Source: Candidatus Goldiibacteriota bacterium HGW-Goldbacteria-1 (GTDB taxonomy: Bacteria; Oederibacteriota; PGYV01). Taken from it: 64,000 bases of DNA. The notes under the pieces were generated by a model, which was given only the letters and a program-made list of their open reading frames with translations, ran no database searches and was not told where the DNA came from. This document shows, piece after piece, positions 28,878 to 64,000 of this stretch. The stretch covers positions 7,220 through 71,219 of the forward strand of contig PGYV01000009.1 in the NCBI GenBank assembly GCA_002839855.1, in the 5' to 3' direction. A program made the translations under genes and the position numbers. Numbering within the stretch: the first letter of the stretch is position 1; each line of letters starts with the position of its first letter.

Positions 28878-28898
28878 TTTTTTATCCCCGGTGCCTCT

Positions 28899-34166: not shown

Positions 34167-34257
34167 GCAGTCGCTCCATTTTACGGCTGTAATTATTTTT
34201 ATTGATAAAATAACCTTATCTGACAGATTATTACACATTTTAATATAAATCAAACAA

Positions 34258-34296
34258 TAAAAAAAGGACGGCTTATAATAAGCCGTCCTTTTTTAC
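34258..34296 (-). terminator. bidirectional-looking hairpin terminator 3' of the ankyrin gene
   Basis: AAGGACGGCTTAT-AAT-AAGCCGTCCTT, flanked by A- and T-runs. Confidence 0.7.
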
Positions 34297-34309
34297 TTAA
34301 TAACTGTAT

Positions 34310-35200: not shown

Positions 35201-35384
35201 TTAAACCTCCCATTTTTTTTTAAATTTTACCACTTCTATGGCTGTCTTTCAAGGAAAAATCACGGATATGTCAATGCTTTAAACCTGCAGGACTGTTCTG
35301 CGTCCAAAACTATATCAGTAAAAAGATAATACTTTTTCTTACTTTTCCGTTTATAGTGTCACGCAATCTGCCGTATTGAAAAAA

Positions 35385-36371: not shown

Positions 36372-36382
36372 ATCTGCCCCCG

Positions 36383-37576: not shown

Positions 37577-37589
37577 TATATGGCTCCTG

Positions 37590-38579: not shown

Positions 38580-38612
38580 TTTATCCCTCTCAGCTTTTTA
38601 TAATTTTATTAT

Positions 38613-39050
38613 TTAGGCGCGTTTTTTTGTCTTACCCTTTGACTTTGGCTTTACCTTAATTACTTTTGAACTTTTATTAAGCGTATTTACAAGCAGCTGT
38701 ATTTTATCCGTGCTTTCAGCGCTTATTAAGTGCTGTATTTTGGAGGCTTCTTCTTTTGCCCTGTTTTCACCTGTTTTTACAGTGTTTTGAAGGAAGTCCA
38801 ATAGTATTTCATATTTGCGGTTTATGGCTTCTGCCGCCTGTTTACCGCGCGGGGTCAGGGTGATAAACCCGTAGCGCTCGTGCTGAATAAGCTCCGCCCT
38901 TTTAAGGTAGTTGACGGCGGATACCACGCTTGCTTTTCTCACTTCCATTTTACGCCCAATATCCGAAACCCTGGCTACCTTTTTTTCCTTTTCAAGCAGG
39001 TATATTATCTTTAAATAATCCGCCATGGCGGCAGACAGCTTATTTTCCAT
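38613..39050 (-). CDS. DtxR/MntR-family metal-dependent transcriptional regulator
   Basis: An N-terminal HTH is followed by a metal-site region (ADYLKIIYLLEKEKKVARVSDIGRKMEV...). Confidence 0.7.
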   Translation of the reverse strand: MENKLSAAMADYLKIIYLLEKEKKVARVSDIGRKMEVRKASVVSAVNYLKRAELIQHERYGFITLTPRGKQAAEAINRKYEILLDFLQNTVKTGENRAKEEASKIQHLISAESTDKIQLLVNTLNKSSKVIKVKPKSKGKTKKRA

Positions 39051-39142
39051 TTAAACCACCCTTTATTTGTTATATGAACCTAACAAGATTATATAAGATT
39101 AATAGGTTTACGTCAATGCGATGCAAGCTAAATTAAATACTG

Positions 39143-39991
39143 TTACTTTTCTGTATTCCTATATGCGTAAAGCAAAATGTCCTGAAATGTATTTTTTTTA
39201 AAAACAGGCAGTATATTGGTGCTTATCTGATACTTAAAACCGGCTTTAACCGCCTGATCAAGTATCACAGATGTTATTTCTTTGCTCATATCAATATTAT
39301 GGTGTATTTCTATCACCATCTCTTTAATTTCATTTATCTTTTTACTCGCTGTAATTTCATTCATCACAGCATCTTCAGCGCCTTCAATATCCATTTTTAA
39401 AAAATCAATTTTTTCATTTATATACGAAGAAAGCATTGCGGTTTTTACAGGCAATTTATTGCCTTTGCTGTTTCTGTTTTCCGATATACTCATCTGCAGA
39501 CTGCCTTTATTTTTATCAGGAATATAAAAATCAATTGTCTTTTCACTGTCATATAAAGCGGCATTTACAATTGTTGCATTATTAATGCCATTTATTTCTA
39601 CATTTTCTTTAAGCAGTCTGAATGTTTCCGGATCAGGTTCAAATGCAGTTATTTTCGCGTTTTTATACAGGTATTTGAAGTATAGAACAGACATCCCCAT
39701 ATTGCTGCCGCAGTCAAGTATTTTTGGAGCAGCCTCTTGGGTTTCAAAATAATACTGTTTTGTAAGAAATATTTCTTCAAATAATCCATAAAATGTATAA
39801 AACTCAAAAAAATTAACTTTAAATCCAAGAAATTTGGTTTTTAAAATTTTCAACCGCAGAAGTTTAACAAAAAATATGTATTTTAAGAACAGCCCGGTAT
39901 AAGTTGATGCCATTACAACCCTTTCTTTCCCTTTATAATTGCTGATTAACCTTTTAAAGTAGTAAAAAAACTCTCTAAATGCATATATCAT
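39143..39991 (-). CDS. FkbM-family methyltransferase
   Basis: The SAM motif ILDCGSNMGMS is present. The family size fits. Confidence 0.6.
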   Translation of the reverse strand: MIYAFREFFYYFKRLISNYKGKERVVMASTYTGLFLKYIFFVKLLRLKILKTKFLGFKVNFFEFYTFYGLFEEIFLTKQYYFETQEAAPKILDCGSNMGMSVLYFKYLYKNAKITAFEPDPETFRLLKENVEINGINNATIVNAALYDSEKTIDFYIPDKNKGSLQMSISENRNSKGNKLPVKTAMLSSYINEKIDFLKMDIEGAEDAVMNEITASKKINEIKEMVIEIHHNIDMSKEITSVILDQAVKAGFKYQISTNILPVFKKNTFQDILLYAYRNTEK

Positions 39992-40110
39992 TTCTCACCC
40001 CTGTCATTTATTAATAAAACCTTACATAAAAGGAGATGTGAAGTAAATATCCGGTATTGCGTACAATAAACCTAAAAATATAAACCCCCCGGCAAATATC
40101 AGGTTTGCCG

Positions 40111-41706
40111 CTATTGCCATCTGCGCTCCATTTTATATATTACAGTGCCGTAATACTTTTTTGTCTCTTTTATATTAAACCGGTCTTTAACCCATTTAAT
40201 TTCTTCCGCGTTTAAAGGTGATTCAAATTTATTTTTGGAATGCCACACACTGCCTGCGGGCAGCCACGGCTGTTTGATTCCGATACTGTCATCATTTACA
40301 AACCACACTTCCCTGTAATTTCTGATAATACCGGCAAGTTCATTTTCTGTTATAAGGTTTTTGTCTTCCCCGCCGCGTATTTCAAGTTTAAACTTTTTTA
40401 CCAGAATTTCGTCCCTGAACTTTTCCCATTTTACCCTTATGTTATATCTTAACCCTTTTTTCTTTGTTTCAGTTACTTTGCCTATGTACCTGTTTTCAAA
40501 ATTACTTCTGTGTTTAACCCTGTTATAAAATTCAAAGGCAGAATAGGAATTTATGCTGCTGTGAACGACAAACGCGCCTTCTTTTGCGTCTTTAACAAAT
40601 TCAGAATACTGTTTTTTATAATCAATCTTCCTGTATTTTTCATTTCCGTAATAATTATAAAAAGCCACGCCATAAAATATGAACATCACCGACAGCGCCA
40701 GTATAATGCCTTCTCTTGATAAATAAGATATGCCTATTGCTAAAAGCACAAGTACAAGCGCGCATAAAAGGATAAGCCCGCTTTCCGGATATATGAACCT
40801 GCCAAAAGCAGCTGCCAGCCACGGTATGACAAAATAAAGAAGAGTAACCCAGGAGATAACCGAAATAATTTTCATGTTCTTATGCCTGTATGTGAAAACC
40901 GCCATTATAATAAGGTAAAGGACTCCCGCAAAACCTATTCCGGAAATAAAATTAAAATCAGCCGTAAAGCCAAACAGATAATCCTTAAGCGCTATAAACG
41001 GCGCCAGCAGGGTATTTGCCTTTAAAACCACCCCTGAAACACCCTTTAAAAGAAAAGGCAATGCCGGCAGAATAAGGATAAGTATTATCACCTGCGCCTT
41101 TATCCACAGGTTTATCCTGATTTCATCCCTGTATTTTATGAAAATAAGCAGGTTAAAAATAATAAGAAGCACAGCGGTAAGGCTGTGGGTATATATTCCC
41201 ACTACCGACCATAAGACAAAAGGTTTCAGCAGAAAACTGTTGTACTTTACCGACATCAGAAAATAATATGTCAGAAGAAGGGAAACAAATAAAAACATAC
41301 TGAAAACCGCGGCTTCCTGCGAGTAATAAACAAGGTACGGGTTTAAAGCAAACAGAAAGAAAGCTGTAAGGCTTATTGTCTCGCTGAAAAACGCGCGCAC
41401 AAGGCGGTAAAACACAAGCATTGAGGCAATTGAAAATAAAAGCGGCAGCAGCCTTAATGATGTTTCCGAGTACCCGAAAATATTACAGGTAATATGCTGC
41501 ATCATGTAAAACAGAGGCGGATGCGGCTGTGACGCGAAACTGTTCCAGAAAACCGTAATTAAATTTGAATCTGCCGCGAAACGCGCGGTTATAAATTCAT
41601 CCGGCCCTATGCTTTGGCCTGAAATGCCGATTACCCTTAAAGCCGTCCCTGCCAGAAATAAAAGCACAAGATACAGCCCGCTGTTTGCGTTAATGTTCAG
41701 TTTCAT
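40111..41706 (-). CDS. ArnT/PMT-like (GT39/GT83) GT-C membrane glycosyltransferase
   Basis: A first-loop GPDE motif follows TM1. About 12 TM helices are present. A C-terminal soluble domain is present. Confidence 0.65.
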   Translation of the reverse strand: MKLNINANSGLYLVLLFLAGTALRVIGISGQSIGPDEFITARFAADSNLITVFWNSFASQPHPPLFYMMQHITCNIFGYSETSLRLLPLLFSIASMLVFYRLVRAFFSETISLTAFFLFALNPYLVYYSQEAAVFSMFLFVSLLLTYYFLMSVKYNSFLLKPFVLWSVVGIYTHSLTAVLLIIFNLLIFIKYRDEIRINLWIKAQVIILILILPALPFLLKGVSGVVLKANTLLAPFIALKDYLFGFTADFNFISGIGFAGVLYLIIMAVFTYRHKNMKIISVISWVTLLYFVIPWLAAAFGRFIYPESGLILLCALVLVLLAIGISYLSREGIILALSVMFIFYGVAFYNYYGNEKYRKIDYKKQYSEFVKDAKEGAFVVHSSINSYSAFEFYNRVKHRSNFENRYIGKVTETKKKGLRYNIRVKWEKFRDEILVKKFKLEIRGGEDKNLITENELAGIIRNYREVWFVNDDSIGIKQPWLPAGSVWHSKNKFESPLNAEEIKWVKDRFNIKETKKYYGTVIYKMERRWQ

Positions 41707-42847
41707 TTTTCACCGCTGATAGGTATATTTTTAATGTCTCCTGTGCTGTTTCTTTCCAGGAAAAAGTTTTTACCCTTTCAAGTCCAAGTTCCGTTAACGC
41801 TTTTCTTTTTGCCTCGCTTTTTTCCAGTTCTGTCATTGCCCTTACCATGTCTTCGGCGGAAAAAGGGTCAATGAACATGGCCGCATCCCCCGCCACCTCT
41901 TTTAAAGAGGTGTTGTCGGATGTAATTACAGGCAGGCCGCACGCGAAAGCTTCAAGCACCTGCAGGCCAAACCCTTCCCACATCGACGGAAAAAAGAAAA
42001 ATAAAGCGTTATTATACAGCATTACCATGTCATCATCCCCGACATATTCAGTTATGATTACATATTTTTCAAGATTCTTTTCCTTTATTACTTTTTCTAT
42101 ATTTGTGGTCTGAAGTTCTTTTTTCCCTATGGACGTGATAACCAGCTGGTATTTATACTCGCATATGTTATTAAAAAGGTTAAAAGCGTGAAGCGCGCGT
42201 TCGGTATTTTTTCTTAAATCCGCGGCAGCGCTTATCATTACATAAGGCTTGGTAATTTTATATTTTGCTTTTACTTTTTCGCTTCTGTTTTTGTCATTTA
42301 CTATTTTATATTTTTTATCAACGCCTTCTTTTATTACCGCAATCTTTTCTGCTTTAACACCCGCGTGCTTTATTATGTCGTTTTTTGAATACTCAGATAC
42401 GGTTATCACCTTATCCGCCGTCTTTCCGGATATGGGTATTGAAATCTTATTGTAAATATCCACCAGCCTCTGTTTTAAACTGGGTTTTAAAATGGCTTTT
42501 GTTATGGGCCTTATGAACATTGTATCGTGAATGGTCACCACTTTTTTGCCACGAAACAGCGGCATCATATATGGGATTGTGTTGTCCGTGCCGTGCAGAA
42601 CGTCTATTTTATCTTTTGCCGCGGCAAGAGGCAGGTGAAACTGTTCATACATAAATGCGTTAGTTGTGTTTAATCTGCGGATGACGCAGTTTTTTGCGGT
42701 GATAAGGTCGGCCAGCACGGTATTACGGTCAAGGTAAATAAAATAATGATTTTCCCTGTCTTCGGCAAGCAGATGGCTGAACAGGTTTGCAATATAGCGG
42801 CCCACTCCCCGCCTGTACATTATTCTGGCGTCTATCCCTATGCGCAT
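41690..42847 (-). CDS. glycosyltransferase family 4
   Basis: The GT-B fold is present with a C-terminal EGFGLQVLEAFACGLPVI motif. Confidence 0.8.
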   Translation of the reverse strand: MRIGIDARIMYRRGVGRYIANLFSHLLAEDRENHYFIYLDRNTVLADLITAKNCVIRRLNTTNAFMYEQFHLPLAAAKDKIDVLHGTDNTIPYMMPLFRGKKVVTIHDTMFIRPITKAILKPSLKQRLVDIYNKISIPISGKTADKVITVSEYSKNDIIKHAGVKAEKIAVIKEGVDKKYKIVNDKNRSEKVKAKYKITKPYVMISAAADLRKNTERALHAFNLFNNICEYKYQLVITSIGKKELQTTNIEKVIKEKNLEKYVIITEYVGDDDMVMLYNNALFFFFPSMWEGFGLQVLEAFACGLPVITSDNTSLKEVAGDAAMFIDPFSAEDMVRAMTELEKSEAKRKALTELGLERVKTFSWKETAQETLKIYLSAVKNETEH

Positions 42848-42869
42848 ATAATAAAATCCCTGTTGGTTT

Positions 42870-43619
42870 TCATTTCTTTCCCGTCACTATGAAACTTCCG
42901 CCTTTTTTATTTAGCAAAAGCGAACCTACAGCATCTGTCAGGTTAAGAAGCCCAAACACAAAACCCTGCGGCATTTTGCCAAGCGCGTCTTCAAGGCCAT
43001 ACGGCAGCCTTAAATAATTGGTGTTTATTATTTTAACAGACTGAAAACCGGCGTTTTTAAAAAGTTCAGCCGTTTCATCCGGGCTGAAGTTAAACAGGTG
43101 GTCTTTGTGTTCTTCTTCCAGCTGCTTTGCCTTTTTCTTAAATAATGCCTTATAATAAGAATTTTTATTGGTTAAAGTGACTATAAGGGAGCCGCCTGTA
43201 TTAAGCGCGGTATAAGCGTTTTTTATCACTGTCTGCGGCTCATAACAGTGGTCAAGCACCTCTTTTATAAGAACCGCGTCAAATTCATCTTTATATGTTA
43301 TTTCTTCCCCTGTACCCCTTTTAAGCTGGTATTCTTCTTCATTTATGTCAAATTCAAGCATAGCTTCAGAAGGTTCTATACCCACATACCTTTTAACAAT
43401 ATCCTTTACTTCCCCAAAAAACTCTCCCCTGCCCGCCCCGATATCCAGCATTGTGATATATCCGTTCTGTTCCACAACTTCATCAGCAATAATACGGCAT
43501 ATTTTTTTATTAAGCCTTACCCACCTTTTTTTCATAAGGGCATTGGCTTTATATTTTAGAAAATCCTTATCATCCCATTTTAACTGCGTCTCTTCCCACT
43601 GCTTTTTTTTGTCTTCCAA
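42870..43619 (-). CDS. class I SAM-dependent methyltransferase
   Basis: DIGAGRGEF motif I is present. Confidence 0.6.
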   Translation of the reverse strand: MEDKKKQWEETQLKWDDKDFLKYKANALMKKRWVRLNKKICRIIADEVVEQNGYITMLDIGAGRGEFFGEVKDIVKRYVGIEPSEAMLEFDINEEEYQLKRGTGEEITYKDEFDAVLIKEVLDHCYEPQTVIKNAYTALNTGGSLIVTLTNKNSYYKALFKKKAKQLEEEHKDHLFNFSPDETAELFKNAGFQSVKIINTNYLRLPYGLEDALGKMPQGFVFGLLNLTDAVGSLLLNKKGGSFIVTGKK

Positions 43620-43655
43620 AAAGCCCTCCGCTTGTCATTTAAATTTTCTAAAAAA

Positions 43656-44552
43656 TTACCGCTTTTTACGCGCACCAACAAAAAAACCGTTGCTTAACCC
43701 GAAAAGTTTCCACGGCAGCTCCAGAAATTCCATTACCGGCCGCAGTATGTAAAAAAAACGGTATACCGCCTTCTTTTTTCCGCCCGCTGTATCCACAGGC
43801 GTTTTTTTAACATTATTACCTTTCATTTTATTCCTCACCATTTTAAACAATAACTCATCCGCAAGCAACGTAAAAAAAGAGTGAAGAAACCCTATTTTAA
43901 CATCAGGGCAGCCAAGTTTATATACGGCATGTGCTGTTTTGTATGGCTCGGCAAACTGCTCCCTGAAATGGCCGCCTTCGGTATCCTGTCCAAGTTTTCC
44001 AAAGGTAATTAAACGCAGGAACCAGTGCCATGTGAATATATCCCTTTTGGAAATTGCATAAATTAAAAGTTTTCCTCCGGGTTTTAATACCCTAACCATT
44101 TCTGATAAAACCTTTTCCTTGCTTTCCACATGTTCCAGTACATCAAAAGAAACAACGGCATCAAAATAGTTTTTATCAAAAGGCATTTTTTCAAGCACGG
44201 AATTTTTGTAAGTTATTTTTTTTGAACCCGCTTCTTTGGCGCGCTGAAGCGCAAGTTTGGACAGGTCACAGCCATACCCTTTTATTTTGTACATTGCTTC
44301 CAGCTGATTAATAAGGACTCCGGGGCCGCACCCCGCGTCCAAAACTTTCATACCCGGCTTTAATTCAAGTTTTTCAAGTTCTTTAATATTACGGGCGGCT
44401 TTAAAACTTACGCCCAGCATCCTGTTATCACGCGCGTCAGCAACGTGGGATTTCATATATTCAATAAAAAACTTTTTATCTTCATATATAGGCCTGTATT
44501 CTTTGTCTTTGCCGTCATACAGGTCTTTTTGAATTTTTGTAATTTTTTTCAT
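43656..44552 (-). CDS. class I SAM-dependent methyltransferase
   Basis: LDAGCGPGVL motif I is present. The post-I acidic residue is present. Confidence 0.7.
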   Translation of the reverse strand: MKKITKIQKDLYDGKDKEYRPIYEDKKFFIEYMKSHVADARDNRMLGVSFKAARNIKELEKLELKPGMKVLDAGCGPGVLINQLEAMYKIKGYGCDLSKLALQRAKEAGSKKITYKNSVLEKMPFDKNYFDAVVSFDVLEHVESKEKVLSEMVRVLKPGGKLLIYAISKRDIFTWHWFLRLITFGKLGQDTEGGHFREQFAEPYKTAHAVYKLGCPDVKIGFLHSFFTLLADELLFKMVRNKMKGNNVKKTPVDTAGGKKKAVYRFFYILRPVMEFLELPWKLFGLSNGFFVGARKKR

Positions 44553-44581
44553 GATTGCCTCTCATGTCATTTTCCTGCTGC

Positions 44582-45652
44582 CTAAAACAGTTCGTCCTCT
44601 TTTACATACTGTATTATATTGTGTTTCTGTTTGTTTTTTAATATCCTGTCCGCAATAGAATGGATGAATTCCGGGGGAATTTCAAGGCATATCTTTCCCC
44701 TGTCGCATTCTGCCTGCTGGCACTTAGCGCACGGCACGTCTTTTGTGACTATGTATGAATTTTTACCCAAAGCACCCCACTCTTTATAATCCGCCGCGCC
44801 GGAAAAAACGGTAAGTGATTTCACGTTAAAAGCGGATGCAATATGCACAGCCGCGGAGTCATTGCCTATCACTATCTGCGCGCGCTTTATAAGCGAACCC
44901 ATCTCCCTTACTGTTATTATTCCCGAAAGGTTGACTATATTTTTGCCTTTAATTGACATTATATCGCCGTCTGTTTTATTGCCCACCACCACCACGTTGA
45001 TTTTTTTTGCAAGCATGGCCGCAAGGTTTCTGTAATTATCAATCCCCCAGTCCTTTGAAGAATGGCCGGAAACCGGGTGCAATACGGCGAATTTTTCCAC
45101 TTCGCCTTTTTTTAAAAGCCTTGTGATATTTTCTTCGCTCTGTTTTGACAGCGCAAAACCAAGTTTTACCGGGTATTTTTTTCCGGTAATACGCTGCAAA
45201 AATAAAATATGTTTTTCAGTTTCATGAATGTTTCTTTTGGGAGATGCCATTTTTCTGTTAATGCCAAAACCCGCCCCGTTTACATCATACCCGTATTTAT
45301 CGCGGGCATTTGAAAATGACAGTATTAAGGAGCTTAACCTGTCCTGCCACCTAAGCGAAATAAGCGTGTCAAAATGGTGTTTGTTTACATGTTTTAAAAC
45401 AGATAAAGCAGAACCCCACCTTTCAAACAGTGATTTCTTTTCATATGACAGCCATAATGGATTTATTACCTCTATTTTATCAAACAACCCAAGCCCTTCA
45501 AGCGCTTCTTTGCCCGCGGGGCTTAAAAAAGCGGTAATGTGCGCGTGTTTATAGTGCTGCCTTAAACCGAAAAAAAACGGAGACGCAAGTACTGCGTCTC
45601 CGATTCCGTCTGCTTTAATCACGCCTATCCTGATTTTACGGTTTTTTTCCAT
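44582..45652 (-). CDS. glycosyltransferase family 9 (heptosyltransferase-like)
   Basis: The N-terminal pattern IRIGVIKADGIGDAVLASPF is typical of GT9. Confidence 0.75.
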   Translation of the reverse strand: MEKNRKIRIGVIKADGIGDAVLASPFFFGLRQHYKHAHITAFLSPAGKEALEGLGLFDKIEVINPLWLSYEKKSLFERWGSALSVLKHVNKHHFDTLISLRWQDRLSSLILSFSNARDKYGYDVNGAGFGINRKMASPKRNIHETEKHILFLQRITGKKYPVKLGFALSKQSEENITRLLKKGEVEKFAVLHPVSGHSSKDWGIDNYRNLAAMLAKKINVVVVGNKTDGDIMSIKGKNIVNLSGIITVREMGSLIKRAQIVIGNDSAAVHIASAFNVKSLTVFSGAADYKEWGALGKNSYIVTKDVPCAKCQQAECDRGKICLEIPPEFIHSIADRILKNKQKHNIIQYVKEDELF

Positions 45653-45784: not shown

Positions 45785-47527
45785 TTAGTCCATGAACCCT
45801 TTTAAGTTTTTTGCCCTTGCAGGGTGCCTTAATTTTCTTAACGCTTTTGCCTCTATCTGCCTTACGCGTTCGCGCGTAACCTTGAATATTTTTCCCACTT
45901 CTTCAAGGGTGTGCGGCACTCCGTCGCCTATTCCAAAACGCAGGCGCAGGACTTCCGCTTCCCTTTCCTTTAATGTATGCAGCACTTTTTCAATCTGTTC
46001 TTTTAACAGTACGTTAACCGCCGCTGCTGCCGGCGATATTGCGTCTTTATCTTCAATGAAATCGCCAAGGTGAGAATCTTTTTCCTCGCCTATGGGTGTT
46101 TCAAGCGAAATAGGGTGCTGTGATATTTTAAGCACAGAACGCACTTTTTCCGCGGACATACCCATTTTTTTTGCTATTTCTTCCGGCTTTGGTTCGCGGC
46201 CATACTGCTGCACAAACTGGCGCGCCACTTTATTTAGTTTATTTATGGTCTCTATCATGTGCACTGGTATGCGGATTGTGCGCGCCTGATCCGCGATAGC
46301 CCTTGTAATTGCCTGCCTTATCCACCATGTGGCGTAAGTGGAGAACTTATAGCCGCGCTTGTATTCAAACCGCTCTACAGCGCGCATTAGCCCAATATTT
46401 CCTTCCTGAATAAGATCAAGGAAAGACAGCCCTTTATTGATATACTTTTTTGCGATGGATACAACAAGCCTTAAATTGGCCACAACAAGTTCTTTTCTTG
46501 TTATGCGCGCTTCAAGCATATTCTTTTTTATCTTGTAGGCAATGGACTTTAAATCTTCCTTTTTCATCCCTACAAAATCTTCTTCCCGTTTAATGCTGTT
46601 TTTTATATCCTTTACTTCTTTTAAAACATCCGTGAACCTTGCCTTGTTCATTCTTTTCTTTTTTAAAAATTCATTAAGCTGTTTTCCGCCCCTGCCAAGC
46701 GAAACAAATTCTTCCGCTGTCTTGCCGTACTTCTTTTCATATACAAGCAGGTCGCGTTCATCCTTGTTTATTTTTCCCACAATACCCATTATCTTTTTGG
46801 CAATAAGGTTAATCTGCTCGTTATTAAGCTTAAGCATGTGCAGATCATCAAGTTTTTTACGGATATGCCTGTCGCGTACTTTTTCAAGTTTTTCTTTTCT
46901 GGCCGGGGTTAACCCCTTCTTTTGAAGCGCTGCTTTTACTTTTGCCGCTTCTTTTTCTTTTTTATCCGCGCTTTTAATATACTTGCTGAAACGGTCTATA
47001 AGCCTGCTTTCCACCGACGGCGGGATTTCCCCTTCAAGCTTTGTCTTGATTATATCAACTATTTTTATCGTGCCTGAATGAAGGTCATCGTCAAGCTTCT
47101 TTATTTCGTCATACCCTATCTTTGTGTCAAATATAATATTCTTTACGTTTATTTCCGCTGTCTCTATTTTCTTTGCTATCCTGACTTCGTCCTCACGGCG
47201 CTCTAAAAGCGGCACCTTTCCCATCTCGTGAAGGTACATCTGCACGGGGTCAGCCGAAAAACCGTCCGTGTCAGCTTCAAGATAGTCCACATCTTCCGCT
47301 TTTTCCGCAGGTTTTTCCGCGTTAACCGGCTGCTTGCCGTCTTCCTTTATTTCTATGTCAAACTCTTCCATGATATTAAGCATGTTATCAATGTCTTCAA
47401 CAGACGTAAAATCATTGGGAAGCGAATCGTTTAACTCTTCATAAGTTAAGAAACCTTTTTCTTTTCCTTTTTTTATCAGTTCCTGTACTGCCGGCATATT
47501 CTTTAAATTCTTACTCAAGATGTTCAC
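45785..47527 (-). CDS. rpoD: RNA polymerase sigma-70 factor RpoD
   Basis: Regions 1.2 through 4.2 are recognisable ([27 protein letters not shown]... region 4.2 [30 protein letters not shown]). Confidence 0.95.
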
Positions 47528-49319
47528 CTCTTTGGCTTAGTATGTTCTGAATTTCCTGCTTTTCCTTTATATACTGCGTTACCCTATCAAAATCTTTTTC
47601 CAGCTCTGCCTGCTTTATCTTTGCCTGCAGTTCGGCCAACTTTACCGTTACCTTGTCGCCAAGAATCCTGGCTAAACAGTCGTCCATCATATTCTTAATG
47701 TCTTCTGTGGCCGACTTTGCGGTATCGCGGCTTAACGCTTCAGAGATAAAAGCAATGGCGTCATTGTCCTGCCCGAAATCAATCTGCAGGCGCGACATCA
47801 CGTTTTTTTCACCCAAAGCATAAAGCTCTTCCGTCTTTTTTAATACCGCGGAATAAAGAGCGTTTAAAAAATCATCGTGTGCGATGCCTAACAGTTCGCG
47901 CTTGTTTGTCAGATGCCTTAAAAGGACATCACGATCGTCGCGCTCAAAGGCGCAAAGCGCGTAAACGGTCAACAGCCGCTCCGCTGATTCTCTTCCTTTC
48001 TCTTTCATTCCCGCCGGTTTTTTTTCTTCCGGCGCCTTAATTATTTCCGGTTCCTGTTTTTCTTTTCCGGAAACATATCTATCAATTATACCTTCCGGAA
48101 TGTCAAAAAGCAAAGAAGCGCGCTTTACGCACTCCCGCCTGATAACGGGGCTGTCGGCTTTCGCGATTAGGGAGGCAATCTCCCTTGCTGCCGTTTCCTT
48201 ATAATAAGGATTTTTTATATCACCCGCTTCTATCAGGCGCTGTACCCTGAAATCAAAAAACGGAACGGCTGAATCAATTCGTTTTTTGAATTCTTCAGCT
48301 CCGAACTTTTTGATGAACTCATCAGGGTCCTTTGCACCTTCAAAACTTACCACACCCGCGTCTATTCCCGCTTCAAAAAGATTGTCGCCTCCGCGCACTG
48401 CTCCGGCTTTGCCGGCTTCATCCATATCATAGATAAGGTACGCTTTCTGAGTGTATCTTTTTAAAAGCCTGGCCTGGTCGGGCGTTAAAGCCGTGCCTAA
48501 AGACGCGGCTGTATTTTTAAACCCGGCAGTGTACATTGCAATCGCGTCCATATACCCTTCGGTAATGTTCACGGAACCTGCCGCGTGTTTTCTTGCGTTA
48601 TTTAAATTATATAAGTTCTTTCCTTTTGAATACGCCGGTGTCTCGGCGGAATTAATGTATTTTGGCAGCGAATCATCAAGCACCCTTGCGCCAAACGCCA
48701 CAGGGTCGTTGTAGACATTCAGAATGGGAAATATTATCCTGTTTCTGAATACGTCATATCCGCCGCCTGTGTCGCCTTTCTTGCAAATCCAGGCTTTGTA
48801 TATAAGTTCTTCTGAATACCCTTTTGATTTTAACAGGCCGAATAATCCCGAACCCGGGGGCGCGTAGCCAAGCATAAATTCATCCACAGTTTCCTGTGAA
48901 ATACCGCGCGCCTTGATATATTCTTTGGCGGCAGGATTTTTTTCCAGGTTTTCCCTGAAATAATCCAAAGCTGCTTTATTGATGGCTATTATTTTTTCAC
49001 GCTCATCAAACTTTCCGCCCGTGTACTGCTGTTCTTCAATCTGTATGCCGGAGCGCCTTGCAAGAAGCCTTACCGCTTCCACAAAGTTCAGGTTCTCCTG
49101 TTTTTGAATGAACGTAAATACGTTTCCGCCGGCGCCGCAGCCAAAGCAGTGATATATCTGCTTGTCAGGGCTGACCATAAACGACGCGGTCTTTTCGCCG
49201 TGAAAAGGGCACCTTGCCTTAAAATTGCTCCCGGATTTCTTAAGTTCCAGATATTCGGAAAGCACTTCAACTATGTCGCTTGCGCTTTTTATGTCCTCTA
49301 TCTTTTCGGGCGGTATCAT
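47511..49319 (-). CDS. dnaG: DNA primase DnaG
   Basis: The zinc finger [13 protein letters not shown]...[14 protein letters not shown] is present. The TOPRIM motifs are present. Confidence 0.95.
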
Positions 49320-52081: not shown

Positions 52082-52235
52082 TAAATAGATAAAGCCCATA
52101 CATAAGCCCATAGATAATAAGCCATATCCCATAAATAATGATTAAATGCCTATTTTGGGATTATTTAATAGATAAATAATGCCTTTTCATCTAACTACAC
52201 GGCATGTATTGCGCCTTATTCTTATGTTCAGCCTT

Positions 52236-52264
52236 GGTAGACGCGGGTCTTCAGCCCGCGGTAG
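52236..52264. repeat. GGTAG-hairpin repeat unit (A-type, forward): GGTAGACGCGGGTCTTCAGCCCGCGGTAG
   Basis: 6-bp stem CGCGGG/CCCGCG with a 7-nt loop. It is a member of the dispersed family. Confidence 0.75.
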
Positions 52265-52285
52265 TTTGTTTTGGATTTAAGTACT

Positions 52286-52316
52286 GGTAGGCGCGCCTTT
52301 TAAGGCGCGGCAGTTG
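52286..52316. repeat. GGTAG-hairpin repeat unit (B-type, forward): GGTAGGCGCGCCTTTTAAGGCGCGGCAGTTG
   Basis: It has the same flanks as the A-type, with a different self-complementary stem. Confidence 0.75.
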
Positions 52317-52337
52317 CTTTAAAAATTATTAAAAAAA

Positions 52338-52408
52338 CGCGCGGGCTAAAGACCCGCGTCTACCAAACCACTCTCACGAGCTGCTTCTTTTACCCGATTT
52401 TGCTTATC
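52338..52408. repeat. reverse-orientation hairpin unit plus conserved ~45-bp tail (TACCAAACCACTCTC...GCTGCTTCTTTTACCCGATTTTGCTTATC); copy 1 of the direct repeat flanking higBA
   Basis: About 85% identical to 53254-53331. Confidence 0.75.
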
Positions 52409-53253: not shown

Positions 53254-53331
53254 CCGTGGGCTGAAGACCCGCGTGTACCAAACCACTCTCTTTAACTGCC
53301 GAGCTGATTCTTTTACCCGCTTCTGCTTATC
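53254..53331. repeat. reverse-orientation hairpin unit plus conserved tail; copy 2 of the direct repeat flanking higBA
   Basis: CCGTGGGCTGAAGACCCGCGTGTACCAAACCACTCTC...GAGCTGATTCTTTTACCCGCTTCTGCTTATC. Confidence 0.75.
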
Positions 53332-55854: not shown

Positions 55855-56619
55855 TTAAAAACGGTACTTAACAGTCATATAATCCATTCCATACCCGCTT
55901 TCAACGGATAGTTCCGCCTTCAGCCTGTCGTGCAGTTCATCCACCACAAAAGCGGAAAATATGCCAAGCGCGGCGCCTGCAAACACATCAGACACCCAGT
56001 GCTTATCTTTATAGACGCGCGCCGCAGCCACTGTGATGGCGGCGGGGTAAGTGATAAAATACAGCCAGCGGTTGTAATGTTCCGGTATCATTGTCGCCCA
56101 CATAAAAGCGGTGGACGTGTGCCCCGACGGAAATGACATGTCCGAAAATGACACGTGCCAAAAGCTGAACTGATTATCTGTCTGCGAAGGCCTTTGCCTT
56201 CCTGTAACTGTTTTTACAACGTATCCGGTAAGCCCGGATAAGGCAAGCCCTTCAAGCAGTTTGGCGCCGAATTCTTTTTCACGCGGGCTGTCCAGCGCGT
56301 AAAACACCGCCGCGCCTGCCATTACAACCATTCCATCCCCTGCATAGTTGGCTATATCAAATATTGTGTCTTTTGTTTTGTCGTGATATTTGCTTATCCC
56401 ATTACTTAACCATAAATCATTATTTATAAGCAGCGCGGTTGCCCCCGCAATACCGCCAAGAATTAAAGTTGTTTTTAACGGGTTTTCAATTATTGCCCCG
56501 CCCATGGCAGGGTAATCTTTAAATATAATATGTTCCAATACCGGCTCCGGCTGTTCTGCCGCGTAACAAAACGCGATTGCCGTAAGGATAAGCGATATGA
56601 TAAATATAATCCTTTTCAT
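55855..56619 (-). CDS. PAP2-family phosphatase
   Basis: The KxxxxxxRP...PSGH...SRxxxxxHxxxD motif set is present (PSGHTSTAF, ARVYKDKHWVSDV). Confidence 0.8.
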   Translation of the reverse strand: MKRIIFIISLILTAIAFCYAAEQPEPVLEHIIFKDYPAMGGAIIENPLKTTLILGGIAGATALLINNDLWLSNGISKYHDKTKDTIFDIANYAGDGMVVMAGAAVFYALDSPREKEFGAKLLEGLALSGLTGYVVKTVTGRQRPSQTDNQFSFWHVSFSDMSFPSGHTSTAFMWATMIPEHYNRWLYFITYPAAITVAAARVYKDKHWVSDVFAGAALGIFSAFVVDELHDRLKAELSVESGYGMDYMTVKYRF

Positions 56620-59838: not shown

Positions 59839-60588
59839 TTATTTTACCGCAGCTGCCGGCGCCGCGGCTTCATCCGCTTTTACCGGTTTATCAAGTTTAA
59901 GGTGTTTAATCGCCTTCCACCTTGTGGGCGGCCAGTAAACTATCCACGCCTTGCCCCTGATATTTTTACGGGGTAAAAAGCCCCAGAACCTGCTGTCAGA
60001 TGAATTGTCCCTGTTATCACCCATCATAAAATAACTGTCCGGCGGGACTGTCACAGGCCCAAAGTTATCGCGCGGGGCTATAGAGCCGGGGAAAATTCTC
60101 ATATCCTTATGAAAAGTAAAACTTTCATCCAGTTTTTTTCCGTTTATAAAAAGAACTTTATCTTTCATCTCTATTTTATCCCCCGGCAGCCCCATGCACC
60201 TTTTGATAAACATAAAACGCGGGTCTTCGGGATACCTGAAAATAAGCACATCGCCCCTTTTAGGGTCGGCAAAACGCAGCACAGTATCTTCCTTCCACGG
60301 CAGGTACGTGCCGTAAACAAATTTATTGGCAATGATATGGTCGCCTATTAATAAATTGTCTTCCATGGAAGAGGACGGGATACGAAAAGCCTGGATAAAA
60401 AGCGTGCGGATGATAATGGCTATTATAATGGCTTCAAATGCGGGTTCCACCCAGTCGCGCACCACGTTTTCTTTTGAAAGTTTAAAAACAAAAACTACAA
60501 GTATTTCCCCTATTGTAAGCAGTACAAAAAGCGCCCAAAATATGAATTCTGTGGTTTCTATACCAAAAATTGTAGCACCGGGTGGCAT
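59839..60588 (-). CDS. lepB: signal peptidase I
   Basis: The catalytic Ser is in box B of the S26 peptidase family (PSSSMEDNLLIGDHII). A catalytic Lys region is present. An N-terminal TM is present. Confidence 0.85.
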   Translation of the reverse strand: MPPGATIFGIETTEFIFWALFVLLTIGEILVVFVFKLSKENVVRDWVEPAFEAIIIAIIIRTLFIQAFRIPSSSMEDNLLIGDHIIANKFVYGTYLPWKEDTVLRFADPKRGDVLIFRYPEDPRFMFIKRCMGLPGDKIEMKDKVLFINGKKLDESFTFHKDMRIFPGSIAPRDNFGPVTVPPDSYFMMGDNRDNSSDSRFWGFLPRKNIRGKAWIVYWPPTRWKAIKHLKLDKPVKADEAAAPAAAVK

Positions 60589-60664
60589 GTTTTTTCCTCC
60601 ATTAAATTAAAAGATGGTTTAAATTATATGCCAAAAGAGGAAAAAAGCAAGAACTTTAAGGGCG

Positions 60665-60968
60665 GAAGCTGGGCGGCTTGGCAGCTGGGAAGCTGGGAAG
60701 TAACAACACGAGGGACAGATGCACGGAGGGACGAAAGGAATGGCTGTAAAGGCGCGGCTGGGCGGCTAAGCAGCTGGGCAAAGGCGAAAGGCCGGAAGAT
60801 CGGTTTGGATCTGGTAGGCGCACCTTTTAAGGTGCGGCAGTTGATTTAGGTTTAGGTGTAGATGTTTACCAAAATGAAATGAAAAAAACCAACTGCCCCG
60901 GGCTAAAGCCCGCGCCTACCAATACCAAACCATGTTACCCAGTTACCCAGCTGCCTAGCTGCCTAGCC
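60665..60968. mobile_element. MITE-like composite repeat (imperfect ~35-bp terminal inverted repeats made of CAGCTG-containing units, enclosing two GGTAG-hairpin units)
   Basis: The left inverted repeat is GAAGCTGGGCGGCTTGGCAGCTGGGAAGCTGGGAAGTAAC. The right inverted repeat is GTTACCCAGTTACCCAGCTGCCTAGCTGCCTAGCC. The internal units are at 60814-60848 (B-type) and 60888-60920 (reverse). No ORF with a credible start is present. Confidence 0.5.
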
Positions 60969-60978
60969 TCCGTTCCCC

Positions 60979-61007
60979 TTGACACCCTATTTTAAAAGTG
61001 TTATAAA
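60979..61007 (+). promoter_or_regulatory. sigma70-type promoter for the inositol-lipid operon
   Basis: TTGACA-17nt-TATAAA lies 37 bp upstream of the ATG at 61044. An RBS GGAGGG follows. Confidence 0.65.
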
Positions 61008-61043
61008 TCATATGTTTTATATAATTGGAGGGAAATTGTAAAA

Positions 61044-61643
61044 ATGGGATACAAAACAGCCAGAGACGGCCTGAAAAAGTTCTTTGAAAACGCAATGGTG
61101 CCTTTACTTGTACTTTTAAATAAATTGCATATTACACCCAATTTTGTAACATGGGTTGGGCTTATTATTAATTTAGCAGGCGCTTTTCTTATATATAAGG
61201 GGCAATTTGTTGCAGGCGCAATTGTTATCATATTCGCAAGCATTTTTGACATGATAGACGGCTCCCTTGCCAGATATACAAACCAGAAATCAAAATTCGG
61301 CGGGTTTCTTGATTCCGTAACCGACAGGATATCAGAAGGCGCCCTTTACCTGGCTATTCTGATTTATTACCTGAACCTTGAGATACCAAATAAAACCGCG
61401 GTTGTTTTATGTTATGTGGTTATGTTTTCATCATTTCTTGTCAGCTATTTAAGGGCGCGCGCGGGCGGACTTAAAATAGACTGTTCCGGCGGAATCTTTA
61501 CCCGCCCGGAGCGGATGGTGGTTATTTTACTTGGGCTTTTAATTAATCAGGCAGTCCCGGCGCTTTGGATTATGGCAGTATTATCCATAGTAACGGTTAT
61601 TCAGCGGTTTTTGCTTGTCAACGAACAGGCAAAACATATTTAA
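61044..61643 (+). CDS. CDP-alcohol phosphatidyltransferase (phosphatidylinositol-phosphate synthase-like)
   Basis: The D(x2)DG(x2)AR...G(x3)D(x3)D motif is present as DMIDGSLARYTNQKSKFGGFLDSVTD. About 6 TM helices are present. Confidence 0.8.
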   Translation: MGYKTARDGLKKFFENAMVPLLVLLNKLHITPNFVTWVGLIINLAGAFLIYKGQFVAGAIVIIFASIFDMIDGSLARYTNQKSKFGGFLDSVTDRISEGALYLAILIYYLNLEIPNKTAVVLCYVVMFSSFLVSYLRARAGGLKIDCSGGIFTRPERMVVILLGLLINQAVPALWIMAVLSIVTVIQRFLLVNEQAKHI

Positions 61644-61670
61644 ATTCATAGAAATTTCAGGAGGAGAAAG

Positions 61671-62801
61671 ATGGCAAAGATTAGAATGGCAATTGCAGGT
61701 TTAGGCAACTGCGCCTGGTCCCTGATGCAGGGGCTGGAGTTTTACAAGGACGTACAGGACAGCACGTTTATCCCCGGACTTATGAACGCCAACCTTGGGG
61801 GATACAGGGTGCGCGACATTGAACTTGTCGCGGCTTTTGACGTGGACAGCAATAAGGTTGGAAAAGACGTAAAGGACGCGCTGGAAGCCCTGCCTAACAA
61901 CACGATTGAATTCGCTAAAATGAAAAAGACCGGCGTGAAATGCATGAGGGGCCCGACACTGGACGGCCTTGGCAAGTATTACAGGGAAGTTGTAACAGAG
62001 TCAGACGAGATTCCGGTTGACGTGGCAAAAGTATTAAAGGAAAAGAAAGTGGACGTGTTTGTAAGCTACATGCCTGTAGGGTCAGAAGAAGCGGTTCAGT
62101 ATTACGCTTCGTGCGCCCTTGAAGCAAAATGCGCTTTTGTAAATGCCATCCCGGTCTTTATCGCGTCAAAGCCGGAATGGGCGGCAAAGTTTAAAAAAGC
62201 GGGGCTTCCTATTATCGGGGATGACATCAAATCGCAGGTAGGCGCCACGATAGTGCACAGGGTTTTAACCCAGCTTTTTGGAGACAGGGGCGTAAAAATA
62301 CTGCGCACCTATCAGATTAACTTTGGCGGTAACATGGACTTTAAAAACATGCTGGAACGCGAACGCCTGTATTCAAAAAAGATTTCCAAAACCAACGCGG
62401 TTCTGTCCGCGATGCAGAATGACATTGACAGCAAAGAAGACGTTCACGTAGGGCCGTCTGACCACATCCCATGGCTTAAAGACCGCAAATGGTGCCACAT
62501 AAGGATGGAAGGCGAAAACTTTGGAGGTGTCCCTTTAAACCTTGAATTAAAGCTGGAAGTATGGGATTCACCCAACAGCGCCGGCGTTATTATTGACGCG
62601 GTACGCTGCGCCAAGATAGCCCTTGATAAAAAAATAGGCGGAATACTGGAAGGGCCTTCGGCTTACTTTATGAAGACGCCCCCTATCCAGTACGATGACA
62701 ACCTTGCCAAGACAATGGTTCAGAAATTTGTGGACAGCAAACAAACACCTGTTAAAAAATCCGCTAAAAAAGCGGTAAAAAAATCTTCAAAGAAGAAATA
62801 A
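61671..62801 (+). CDS. myo-inositol-1-phosphate synthase (short bacterial/archaeal type)
   Basis: The N-terminal Rossmann region is [22 protein letters not shown]. Conserved central motifs are present. The length matches short-type MIPS. An RBS AGGAGG is present. Confidence 0.85.
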
Positions 62802-63650
62802 ATGTACCGCCTGCTTAAATTTACAGGCATGCTGTTAAAAAATATCCCGCGTACAGCGGGATATTTTTTTTTCAGCGCCATCTCTCTTATTTTATTTGCA
62901 CTGGACGGCAATAAAAAGAAAATACTTCAAGACAATTTAAAACATGTCCTTAGCAAATTACCTGACAACAGGACGCTTAAAAAAAATTATTACAATTATG
63001 CAAGGTACTATTTTGACCTTTTTAAAAATACGTCTGAACTTTCAAAAAGTTTTAACCGCGAATCTTTTAAACCCATGGCAGATACCGTAAAAAGATACCT
63101 TGATAGCGGCAAAAGCATGATAATTACCACAATGCACTACGGCAACTGGGATTTAGGCGGCGCGATTTTAGCATCGTACTTTCCGGGTAAAGTAACAGCA
63201 GTGGTGGAAGAATTATCAGACGGAGCTTTTAAATGGTTTACCGAAACAAGAAGCAGCTGGGGTATGAATGTTATAAAATCCACGGATTTAAAAGCCATGT
63301 TAAAAGTCTTAAAATCAGGAAACCTTCTTGTACTTGTCTCTGACAGGGATTTGGAAAAAACAGGTTTTAATCCTTTATTTTTTGGCAAAAAAGCGTACAT
63401 CCCTTCCGGGCCCGCGAAACTGTCGCTTTTATCGGGGGCTCCGGTGCTTTTTGCTGTTTTTAAAAGAAATGAAACTGACCTATTTAAATATGAACTTTCC
63501 TGGGATAACACTCTTATAAACAGTGAAAATCTTCCCCGCACCCCGGAAAACGAGGAAAAAATTACTAAAGAACTTGTATCAAAATTTGAAACTGTATTGA
63601 AACAGGATGCGTCACAGTGGTGCATGCTGCAGAAGGTTTGGCTGGAATAG
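62802..63650 (+). CDS. LpxL/HtrB (LABLAT)-family lipid acyltransferase (PatA-like)
   Basis: An N-terminal TM is present. The catalytic-region motif HYGNWDLGG is present (the H-x4-D family signature context). Confidence 0.7.
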   Translation: MYRLLKFTGMLLKNIPRTAGYFFFSAISLILFALDGNKKKILQDNLKHVLSKLPDNRTLKKNYYNYARYYFDLFKNTSELSKSFNRESFKPMADTVKRYLDSGKSMIITTMHYGNWDLGGAILASYFPGKVTAVVEELSDGAFKWFTETRSSWGMNVIKSTDLKAMLKVLKSGNLLVLVSDRDLEKTGFNPLFFGKKAYIPSGPAKLSLLSGAPVLFAVFKRNETDLFKYELSWDNTLINSENLPRTPENEEKITKELVSKFETVLKQDASQWCMLQKVWLE

Positions 63651-63743
63651 TTTTGGACGCTTGGATGGTTAGAGGCTTAGAGGCTTGGCTGGAGCGAGCC
63701 TGCGAAGTTAAAATCCCCGGGCTTACGCGGATTATTTGGCTTT

Positions 63744-63779
63744 GGTAGACGCGGGTCTTTAGCCCGCGGCAGTTGATTT
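63744..63779. repeat. GGTAG-hairpin repeat unit (A-type, forward): GGTAGACGCGGGTCTTTAGCCCGCGGCAGTTGATTT
   Basis: Same unit as 52236. It is preceded by AGGCTT-type tandem units resembling the left arm of the 60665 element. Confidence 0.7.
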
Positions 63780-63866
63780 TTTTGGTGCATTAAAAACAAA
63801 ACCTATACATAAATATTTATTTTATTTATAATAAACCGCTGTTAAAAATATTACAAAAAGAGAATA

Positions 63867-64000
63867 TATGCCTGATACTTTTAAAAAAATAGCCATAGTG
63901 ACGCCGTATTATTACCCGCTTTACGGCGGCGTACAGGAATACGTCTATCACCTTAAAAAAGAGTATCAAAAACTTGGATATTTTATAAAAGTAATCACTT
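63867..64000 (+). CDS. GT4 glycosyltransferase, N-terminal fragment (PimA-like by context); continues beyond the window
   Basis: The ATG at 63867 gives MPDTFKKIAIVTPYYYPLYGGVQEYVYHLKKEY, the canonical GT4 N-terminus. This ORF is absent from the supplied track because it is truncated. Confidence 0.5.

Follow-up and report, generated by a model that had tools for sequence, protein, structure and literature searches.

Phosphatidylinositol mannosides (PIMs) are regarded as characteristic of Actinobacteria, and in mycobacteria they are key both to the envelope and to recognition by the host. Is a lipid of this kind also made by a bacterium of a different lineage, with genes for a lipopolysaccharide (LPS)-type envelope? 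The question is raised by the end of a 64,000-nt stretch of Candidatus Goldiibacteriota bacterium HGW-Goldbacteria-1 (contig PGYV01000009.1, positions 7,220 to 71,219), which in its whole length is called the window here. A preliminary description of this DNA had placed there a four-gene operon for inositol phospholipids, similar in content to the actinobacterial pgsA1-patA-pimA module. The present analysis supports that likeness, since PgsA1, PimA and PatA were found to be the best solved relatives of the encoded proteins. The operon is predicted to make an acylated glycosyl-phosphatidylinositol, most likely a PIM of the AcPIM1 or Ac2PIM1 kind, in a Goldbacteria cell with an LPS-type envelope. 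Judged from sequence comparison, this reading has a probability of roughly 0.68.

Layout of the operon and the proposed pathway

The operon was found to be a six-gene unit with all genes on the + strand, in the order phosphatidylinositol phosphate (PIP) synthase candidate (PIPS), myo-inositol-1(3)-phosphate synthase (MIPS), PatA-like acyltransferase LAB1, PimA-like glycosyltransferase GT4, second PatA-like acyltransferase LAB2 and PHP phosphoesterase. According to the list of open reading frames (ORFs), the window contains three complete co-oriented + strand ORFs plus a fourth which starts with the ATG at 63868 and has 44 codons inside. The window is identical (100% over 12,330 nt) to the 126-kb JGI contig Ga0246094_000320, called L001 here, and the genes past the window end were read there. 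An exact-sequence look-up of the MIPS protein returned L001 along with one 124-kb ENA contig. The four genes described before lie exactly where they had been placed and share one orientation; only their count had to be revised, as a second LABLAT acyltransferase and a PHP phosphoesterase follow past the window end. The Pfam families expected for the four proteins (PF01066, PF01658, PF03279 and PF13439/PF00534) were all matched by the respective proteins.

The gene junctions measure, in order, 27 nt, 0 nt, 217 nt, a 1-nt overlap and 31 nt, and this spacing suggests co-transcription of the six genes. A sigma-70-like promoter candidate is situated on the + strand at 60979..61007, composed of TTGACA (60979-60984), a spacer of 17 nt and TATAAA (61002-61007). 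The near-consensus promoter noted earlier is present at this site with 11/12 matching positions, as identified by direct reading of the sequence only. A consensus promoter scan of the window missed it, since the scan requires T at -7 and the -10 hexamer has A as its position 6. The site is placed in the intergenic region that separates the operon from the divergent lepB gene (59839-60588, minus strand). A Shine-Dalgarno sequence GGAGG (61027..61031, + strand), also read directly, is located 12 nt 5' of the first ATG. The Rfam scan of the whole window revealed no leader or riboswitch near the operon.

The 217-nt intergenic gap between genes 3 and 4 (63651..63867, + strand) holds a copy of a GC-rich palindromic repeat (about 63742-63783) and a second promoter-like site listed by the consensus scan (TATACA-17-TATAAT, 63804-63832). 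Because the gap holds both of these elements, organisation as a single transcript is not certain in this genome. In related Goldbacteria the LAB1/GT4 junction varies from a short overlap to about 100 nt, and therefore the repeat in the gap looks like a local insertion. Downstream of the PHP gene, L001 carries convergent and unrelated genes.

From homology and gene context we infer every enzymatic activity of the pathway, along with the identity of the sugar, the acylation sites, the phosphatase role of the PHP protein and the location of the lipid in the envelope. MIPS would convert glucose-6-phosphate to inositol-3-phosphate, which the PgsA1-type synthase would combine with CDP-diacylglycerol to form PIP. 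The PHP phosphoesterase may then remove the phosphate from PIP to give phosphatidylinositol (PI). The PimA-like GT4 is predicted to add a hexose to the inositol 2-OH of PI on the cytoplasmic face, with GDP-mannose as the presumed donor by analogy. LAB1 and LAB2 would contribute one or two extra acyl chains from acyl-CoA, and the first acylation may take place on the sugar 6-OH, by analogy with PatA. Since the operon has no neighbouring gene of PimB' type, the product is most simply predicted to be monoglycosylated.

Conserved features of the predicted lipid-forming enzymes

The first gene (61044..61643, + strand) encodes a multi-pass membrane protein of 199 aa with a CDP-alcohol phosphatidyltransferase domain (PF01066, 73.7 bits), which is a candidate PIP synthase of the PgsA1/PIPS type. 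Among the NCBIfam models, PIPSynth (NF045883) gave the highest score of 165.3 bits, followed by archaetidylinositol-phosphate (AIP) synthase with 155, the BT_1523 type with 117 and IPCT/DIPP synthase (NF041135) with 67 bits. Its best solved relative is Mycobacterium tuberculosis (Mtb) PgsA1 (6h53; E 6e-28, 33.5% identity), and Renibacterium PIPS was matched too. The signature D1xxD2GxxAR...GxxxD3xxxD4 is kept, with D69, D72, G73, R77, D90 and D94 in the positions of Mtb D68, D71, G72, R76, D89 and D93. The inositol-phosphate pocket of Mtb PgsA1 is formed by R94, S132, K135, R137, R152, R155 and R195 (PMC6506517). This pocket is retained in the Goldbacteria protein (R95, S134, Y135, R137, R139, R154, R157 and R188 in its own numbering), and the sole change is an Arg, R137, for Mtb K135. 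On these sequence features the enzyme is grouped with the PgsA1-type PIP synthases, and the corresponding activity is predicted for it. Public names given to the operon genes are generic or misleading; the homologues of gene 1 are named CDP-diacylglycerol--glycerol-3-phosphate 3-phosphatidyltransferase (PgsA).

The same superfamily includes enzymes of compatible solute synthesis, and a MIPS, a CDP-alcohol transferase and a glycosyltransferase superficially fit the pathways for di-myo-inositol phosphate and its mannosylated form, so that the genes could be read as making such a soluble compound, as in hyperthermophiles. The preliminary description had regarded a grouping with DIPP synthase/IPCT as the outcome contrary to its proposal. 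The Pfam scan found PF01066 alone and no cytidylyltransferase domain in the 199-aa protein, the 67 bits for the DIPP synthase model stand against a cut-off of 580 and against 165 for PIPS, and the DIPP-synthase-type structures (E 1e-9 and 9e-7, the latter for 4mnd) are far weaker matches than PgsA1. Two acyltransferases would have no role in solute synthesis, and neither the GC content of about 40% nor the origin of the metagenome-assembled genome (MAG) from groundwater or sediment gives a hint of hyperthermophily. From the domain content and model scores the solute reading was rejected, and it is considered extremely improbable.

The second gene (61671..62801, + strand) encodes a MIPS of 376 aa. 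Its assignment to the short bacterial/archaeal type, as proposed before, agrees with 121 bits for PF01658 and with a full-length match to the bacterial INO1 model TIGR03450 (inositol-3-phosphate synthase; 551 bits, model positions 1-355 of 355). The protein ends in a lysine-rich C-terminal tail (residues about 355-376, window 62735-62801) without counterpart in the Goldbacteria relatives examined, which have 358-363 aa compared with 376 aa. This tail might bind membranes or nucleic acids, or it might be a low-complexity extension.

The fourth gene (63868..64000 in the window; L001:12198-13352 in full, ending at window-equivalent 65022; + strand) encodes a GT4 glycosyltransferase of 384 aa with PF13439 and PF00534, which is 100% identical to a protein recorded for HGW-Goldbacteria-1 as 'hypothetical protein'. 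Its best solved relative is M. smegmatis PimA (2gej/4n9w) with 143 bits and E 1e-40, and the next GT4 scored 61 bits. Mutagenesis of PimA identified Y9, Q18, Y62, N63, R68, H118, R196, E199, R201 and E274 as critical residues (PMC9202250). Nine of these ten are identical in the Goldbacteria GT4, as Y14 (for PimA Y9), Q23 (Q18), N70 (N63), R75 (R68), H124 (H118), R204 (R196), E206 (E199), R208 (R201) and E283 (E274), the exception being Y62, which corresponds to V69. K209, S284 and E291 in the positions of PimA K202, S275 and E282 are also identical, along with G15/G16. PimA is distinguished from PimB' by Tyr9 (Asp in PimB'), Ser275 (Gly in PimB') and an extended beta3-alpha3 inositol-phosphate-binding loop (PMC2988379). 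All three discriminators are of PimA type in the Goldbacteria protein, which has Y14, S284 and the loop PITVNGSTGRII without deletion. The relation to PimA assumed in the preliminary description is supported by these residues and by the wide margin of the PimA match. The Chloroflexota GT4s are intermediate in sequence, with 35-36% identity to PimA and about 43% identity to the Goldbacteria GT4.

Genes 3 and 5 encode two PatA-like acyl-CoA acyltransferases of the LABLAT/LpxL superfamily, LAB1 (62802..63650, + strand, 282 aa) and LAB2 (L001:13352-14212, window-equivalent 65022-65882, + strand, 286 aa). The LpxL/LABLAT family had already been recognised for gene 3 and is confirmed by PF03279 with 108 bits; LAB2 carries the Lip_A_acyltrans domain. 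For both proteins the top NCBIfam model is the PIM acyltransferase PRK07920, with 142 bits for LAB1 and 116.5 bits for LAB2, and the best lipid A acyltransferase models reached 93 and 109 bits respectively, all below their cut-offs. The catalytic His is kept in the H-x-x-N-W-D motif (HYGNWD in LAB1 and HFSNWD in LAB2; H126/W130/D131 in PatA). The acid of block 3 is Asp in both (SDRD in LAB1, VDRP in LAB2), where PatA has E200. In PatA, Glu200 belongs to the charge relay, and Glu or Asp at block 3 is a solution of the family, listed for HtrB/MsbB/PatA (PMC4792965). By these comparisons LAB1 and LAB2 appear closer to PatA than to the lipid A acyltransferases. In mycobacteria the second PIM acyltransferase has 'not been identified' (PMC9490103), and LAB2 is not an obvious orthologue of that activity.

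It may be asked whether genes 1, 2 and perhaps 6 make PI on their own, and both acyltransferases and GT4 are LPS enzymes which share the operon. The organism has a GT9 heptosyltransferase, AsmA and OMPLA, PF03279 is named for lipid A acyltransferases, LAB1 and LAB2 score under the PRK07920 equivalog cut-off of 209 bits, and LAB2 possesses an N-terminal hydrophobic segment typical of LpxL, for which LAB1 stayed below the same threshold. Against this, PatA is a far better structural match than the lipid A lauroyl acyltransferase 5kn7, both for LAB1 (E 8e-17 vs 3e-4) and for LAB2 (E 5e-13 vs 4.5e-7). GT4 keeps the PI-acceptor residues Y9, Q18, N63 and R68 together with the inositol-phosphate-binding loop of PimA. 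In Chloroflexota and Dormibacterota, too, the acyltransferase pair and GT4 lie together with PIPS and MIPS. These two lineages are generally held to lack LPS, and this is the main argument against assigning the three proteins to lipid A or core synthesis. For genes 3 and 5, a lipid A acyltransferase role was given low weight, because PatA outscores it and because of the co-clustering with PIPS/MIPS in Chloroflexota, and a set of LPS enzymes sharing this operon is very unlikely.

Several points weigh against an acylated PIM as the product. All four specific NCBIfam equivalog models (PIPSynth, INO1, and PatA for LAB1 and LAB2) were missed. Besides the acyltransferases, gene 1 with 165.3 bits fell below the NF045883 cut-off of 170, with PIPSynth still its top-scoring model, and gene 2 with 551 bits fell below the cut-off of 638 for TIGR03450, an actinobacterial/mycothiol equivalog. 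The operon contains no PimB'-like second mannosyltransferase, and the 217-nt gap with its repeat divides it in this genome. GT4 is only 29% identical to M. smegmatis PimA and has V69 in place of the critical Y62. In the HMMER alignment the guanine contacts D252, D253 and K256 of PimA correspond to S261, T262 and L265; this stretch varies among the Goldbacteria homologues, and a 2-residue shift restores DD..K in this GT4.

Because the guanine-binding stretch is not conserved in position among the Goldbacteria homologues, GDP-mannose is not established as the donor. The low identity to PimA and these lost contacts would suit a GT4 which moves another sugar (glucose, GlcNAc or galactose from a UDP-sugar) to the same acceptor, and the product would then be an acylated glycosyl-PI and not a strict PIM. 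To our knowledge, the donor specificity of GT4 cannot be read from sequence. On the side of mannose, the mannose-/phosphate-contacting residues E274, S275, F276, I278, R196 and K202 of PimA are all present in GT4, and PimA is its best solved match by about 80 bits. The window also encodes a GDP-mannose 4,6-dehydratase (37590-38579), which implies a GDP-mannose pool and thus availability of the donor. Transfer of a sugar other than mannose is considered unlikely, and an acylated mannoside remains the preferred product.

The PHP phosphoesterase and the phosphatase step

Making PI from PIP needs a phosphatase; the preliminary description had suggested looking nearby for an inositol-phosphate phosphatase. 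A candidate for the PIP step was found in gene 6 (L001:14244-15029, window-equivalent 65914-66699, + strand), which closes the operon and encodes a PHP phosphoesterase of 261 aa (PF02811, PF13263), publicly annotated 'TrpH-like phosphoesterase'. An AlphaFold (AF2) model was built on the cluster representative P0121, which is 97% identical to the operon protein. The model has a pLDDT of 92.8, and Foldseek matched it to PHP phosphoesterases at probability 1.0. The closest solved folds are TM0559 (uncharacterised), RNase AM, BVU_3505, PsfC and pAp phosphatases. The invariant columns D38, H40, H42, D72, H73, E100, H107, H141, D204 and H206 are of the kind that binds metals in PHP enzymes. By its modelled fold the protein would be a metal-dependent phosphoesterase.

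In mycobacteria, PIP is dephosphorylated by a 'yet-unidentified phosphatase' (PMC6506517). The only bacterial PIP phosphatase described is the PgpA-family protein BT_1525 of Bacteroides, whose deletion leads to accumulation of PIP (PMC9246714). The Pfam and NCBIfam scans detected no PgpA domain in the six operon proteins. Members of the PHP subfamily carry generic names and were found at identities of 60-97% among Goldbacteria-type sequences and of 37-50% among Chloroflexota, and its named members are solely from Goldbacteria and Chloroflexota, the lineages carrying the module. Starting from four distant PHP homologues, three of the four loci were found to have a PIPS-type gene within a few genes. 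One of these homologues is part of a LAB-LAB-PHP-GT4-PIPS locus. Two others (Ktedonobacteria-type, one in a Dictyobacter MAG) are positioned directly upstream of a lone CDP-alcohol transferase, which is of PIP/AIP synthase type by score and is the sole pathway gene nearby. Because PHP homologues adjoin PIPS genes even in such minimal two-gene loci, we infer a role as the PIP phosphatase for the PHP protein. If the operon does make PI, we lean slightly towards this assignment, in which the substrate is proposed from gene context.

Other points speak against it. No lipid phosphatase occurs among the Foldseek relatives of the model, the closest characterised ones act on nucleotides or RNA, and no membrane segment was predicted in the PHP protein. 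PHP is absent from many Dehalococcoidia and Dormibacterota clusters (twelve Dehalococcoidia-type clusters lack it within the flank examined), and one homologue, from Roseiflexaceae (P0227), lies in an unrelated context with no inositol genes nearby. These points could indicate a nucleotide or pAp phosphatase, an RNase AM-like enzyme or a hydrolase which tunes sugar nucleotides; the Nudix gene beside pimA in M. tuberculosis has reportedly been proposed to tune sugar-nucleotide supply. PIP would then be handled by another enzyme, such as a PgpA homologue elsewhere in the genome or a PAP2-family phosphatase (254 aa, 55855-56619, - strand) encoded 4.4 kb upstream of the operon near nadD, proA, a hemN-like gene and lepB. 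A PAP2-family gene is found upstream in similar synteny in two of the related Goldbacteria-type contigs (L085 and L087).

PHP is nevertheless tied to PIPS even without an adjacent GT4 or MIPS, it occurs in 33/51 clusters across phyla, and the named members of its subfamily come only from module-bearing lineages. The PAP2 gene belongs to a different operon on the opposite strand, and a third related contig (L086) lacks it. PAP2 active sites normally face the periplasm, while PIPS and PimA work on the cytoplasmic side. The PAP2 protein is the weaker candidate as an alternative lipid phosphatase for PIP, and some other role for the PHP protein is a possible but less favoured explanation.

TM0559, the closest solved fold, is from Thermotoga maritima, which makes di-myo-inositol phosphate through a phosphorylated intermediate. 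We know of no firm assignment of the phosphatase for this intermediate. This may hint at a wider link of this PHP subgroup to inositol-phosphate headgroups.

Distribution, genomic context and known systems

The same six genes were found in the same order in four further Goldbacteria-type contigs, namely L005 (a Goldbacteria MAG), L085 (from a 1.2-Mb contig), L086 (from a 0.9-Mb contig) and L087 (GCA_021372235.1, JAJFUW010000149.1). In these contigs GT4 is 62-69% and MIPS 75-79% identical to the present proteins. The upstream neighbours in L086 differ from those of the window, and L085 and L087 share the upstream set including PAP2. L087 is labelled Spirochaetia, and it agrees with the window both in the operon and in the genes upstream. 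Two further sequences, P0250 and P0277, are likewise labelled Spirochaetia, Firmicutes or Spirochaetota with Goldbacteria-like operon genes, and all three are likely mislabelled Goldbacteria MAGs.

Wider relatives of GT4 were collected by a scan of one genome per GTDB species, from which the best 80 of 576 matches were examined, so that the distribution given here is a minimum, and these 80 did not cover Actinobacteria. They include a single Goldbacteria match, after which the identity falls to 37-46%. The hosts are nearly all Chloroflexota (Limnocylindria, 'Chloroflexia' MAGs, Dehalococcoidia and Thermogemmatispora) along with Dormibacterota. Gene content was counted by tblastn of the six proteins against the loci, 51 of which had enough flank. 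PIPS was present in 49/51, MIPS in 45/51 and PHP in 33/51 of them; at least one LABLAT gene was found in 33/51 and two in 28/51. The commonest layout is PIPS-MIPS-LAB-LAB-PHP-GT4 (22/51 loci), and a reduced MIPS-GT4-PIPS layout, frequent in Dehalococcoidia, is found in 12 loci. This organism is not the only one with the module, which is conserved among Goldbacteria and occurs widely in Chloroflexota and Dormibacterota. Distant PIPS-like homologues (P0311, P0318 and P0299) are solitary with no pathway neighbours, and add nothing on the distribution.

Chloroflexota-type clusters were also seen on short contigs with the labels Steroidobacteraceae, Zixibacteria and Acidobacteria, for which mis-binning is possible. 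Labels of Steroidobacteraceae, Zixibacteria, Binatia, Acidobacteria, Proteobacteria, Spirochaetia and Firmicutes were not counted as other phyla, as the loci look like Chloroflexota or Goldbacteria type. In two 'Chloroflexia' MAG loci, MIPS was matched as two consecutive tblastn segments (L009 4008-5064 and L076 4025-5081), which suggests a frameshift from sequencing error or a pseudogene. In the open-access literature no paper was found on PIMs, PimA/PatA-type modules or a PHP-type PIP phosphatase in Goldbacteria, Chloroflexi or Ktedonobacteria, and inositol, outer membrane and LPS all go unmentioned in the main Goldbacteria genome paper.

The envelope type of the host was judged from other genes of the window. 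OMPLA, outer-membrane phospholipase A (15432-16196, PF02253), an AsmA-family protein (8415-10568), a GT9 heptosyltransferase (44582-45652), an ArnT/PMT-like GT-C enzyme (40111-41706) and a surface-polysaccharide or LPS-type cluster (about 26867-45652) support the prediction of a diderm, LPS-type envelope. The OMPLA-, AsmA- and LPS-type genes reported earlier for this stretch were all recovered, the last represented by GT9. The polysaccharide cluster contains GT2, NeuB, a pyruvyl transferase, a Wzx-like flippase, a CMP-sugar cytidylyltransferase fused to a GT28 C-terminal domain, an ankyrin-repeat protein (34310-35200), an epimerase, a DegT aminotransferase, methyltransferases and another GT4-family glycosyltransferase, besides the GDP-mannose 4,6-dehydratase, the ArnT/PMT-like enzyme and GT9 mentioned above.

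GC-rich palindromic (REP-like) repeats are located in several intergenic regions of the window (17925-17951, 52234-52367, 53258-53282, 60663-60972 and 63742-63783) and of L001 (about 15034-15153, 16067-16103 and 19175-19666). About 310-330 nt upstream of the operon are occupied by a long imperfect palindrome of these repeats, with a fold energy z-score of -7.9 and no Rfam match. A 73-aa ORF inside it (60628-60849), given as a gene in the JGI and ENA records, is probably spurious. The strand switches at 59839-61044, from the - strand of nearly all upstream genes to the + strand of the operon. The sign of the GC skew flips at about 60 kb, from about -0.10 to +0.08, which probably reflects coding-strand bias rather than a replication landmark. 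Elsewhere in the window, recA (11239-12378) lies near lexA (12762-13397), both on the - strand, rpoD (45785-47527) and dnaG (47511-49319) overlap slightly, and tRNA-Met (7044-7120) is the sole RNA gene found.

Among known systems, the mycobacterial PI/PIM pathway has its pgsA1-patA-pimA operon at Rv2612c-Rv2610c, with ino1 elsewhere. Both share a PgsA1-type PIP synthase, a PimA of GT4 and the PatA family, clustered and co-oriented, with catalytic and pocket residues kept. In contrast to it, the host here is a Goldbacteria organism with LPS-type envelope genes, MIPS is inside the operon, two PatA paralogues are present and not one, and a PHP phosphoesterase is found where mycobacteria have a Nudix gene. 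The order is PIPS-MIPS-LAB-GT4-LAB-PHP, the identities are 29-34%, and no PimB' is adjacent.

The clusters of Chloroflexota and Dormibacterota (for example L008, L011 and L058, from Thermogemmatispora tikiterensis) possess the same six families, with PHP in most, at 37-46% identity for GT4 and 56-68% for MIPS. They differ in the order, PIPS-MIPS-LAB-LAB-PHP-GT4 or the reduced MIPS-GT4-PIPS, and in their hosts, which are generally regarded as LPS-free. The archaeal and bacterial IPCT/DIPP synthase systems also pair an enzyme of the CDP-alcohol transferase superfamily with MIPS, but the operon differs from them in lacking a cytidylyltransferase domain and in having a PgsA1-like acceptor pocket and acyltransferases.

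The BT_1522-BT_1526 cluster of B. thetaiotaomicron is also from a diderm and makes PI via MIPS, a PIP synthase and a PIP phosphatase encoded in one cluster (PMC9246714). The phosphatase there is the PgpA-family BT_1525, whereas in Goldbacteria it would be of the PHP family without a PgpA domain. Unlike the Goldbacteria operon, the Bacteroides cluster continues to inositol sphingolipids via BT_1522 and has no PimA/PatA-type genes. The Goldbacteria PIPS also fits the general PIPSynth model (165 bits) better than the BT_1523-type model (117 bits). Inositol lipids are already known in diderm bacteria of the Bacteroidetes, Treponema and Myxococcus (PMC9246714), and the PI part is for this reason not new in kind. 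The unusual part is the PimA/PatA-type glycosylation and acylation in a diderm. The earlier view of inositol glycolipids in a diderm non-actinobacterium as uncommon holds for this part; it does not hold for inositol lipids as such, and the module is widespread.

As a tentative extension, which we judge possible and no stronger, PHP may be a second, non-orthologous bacterial PIP phosphatase, which would supply the missing step of the PgsA1 pathway outside Bacteroidetes, and the extra PatA paralogue may be a cytoplasmic second acyltransferase. Goldbacteria, as LPS-bearing diderms, and many Chloroflexota would then produce PIM-like glycolipids with three or four acyl chains, which have counted as an actinobacterial hallmark. 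For two gaps of the mycobacterial pathway, the PIP phosphatase and the second PIM acyltransferase, the conserved genes provide candidates. If the reading of the operon is true, inositol glycolipids would join the possible envelope components of uncultured lineages, and the origin and distribution of PIM-type glycolipids would extend well beyond Actinobacteria.

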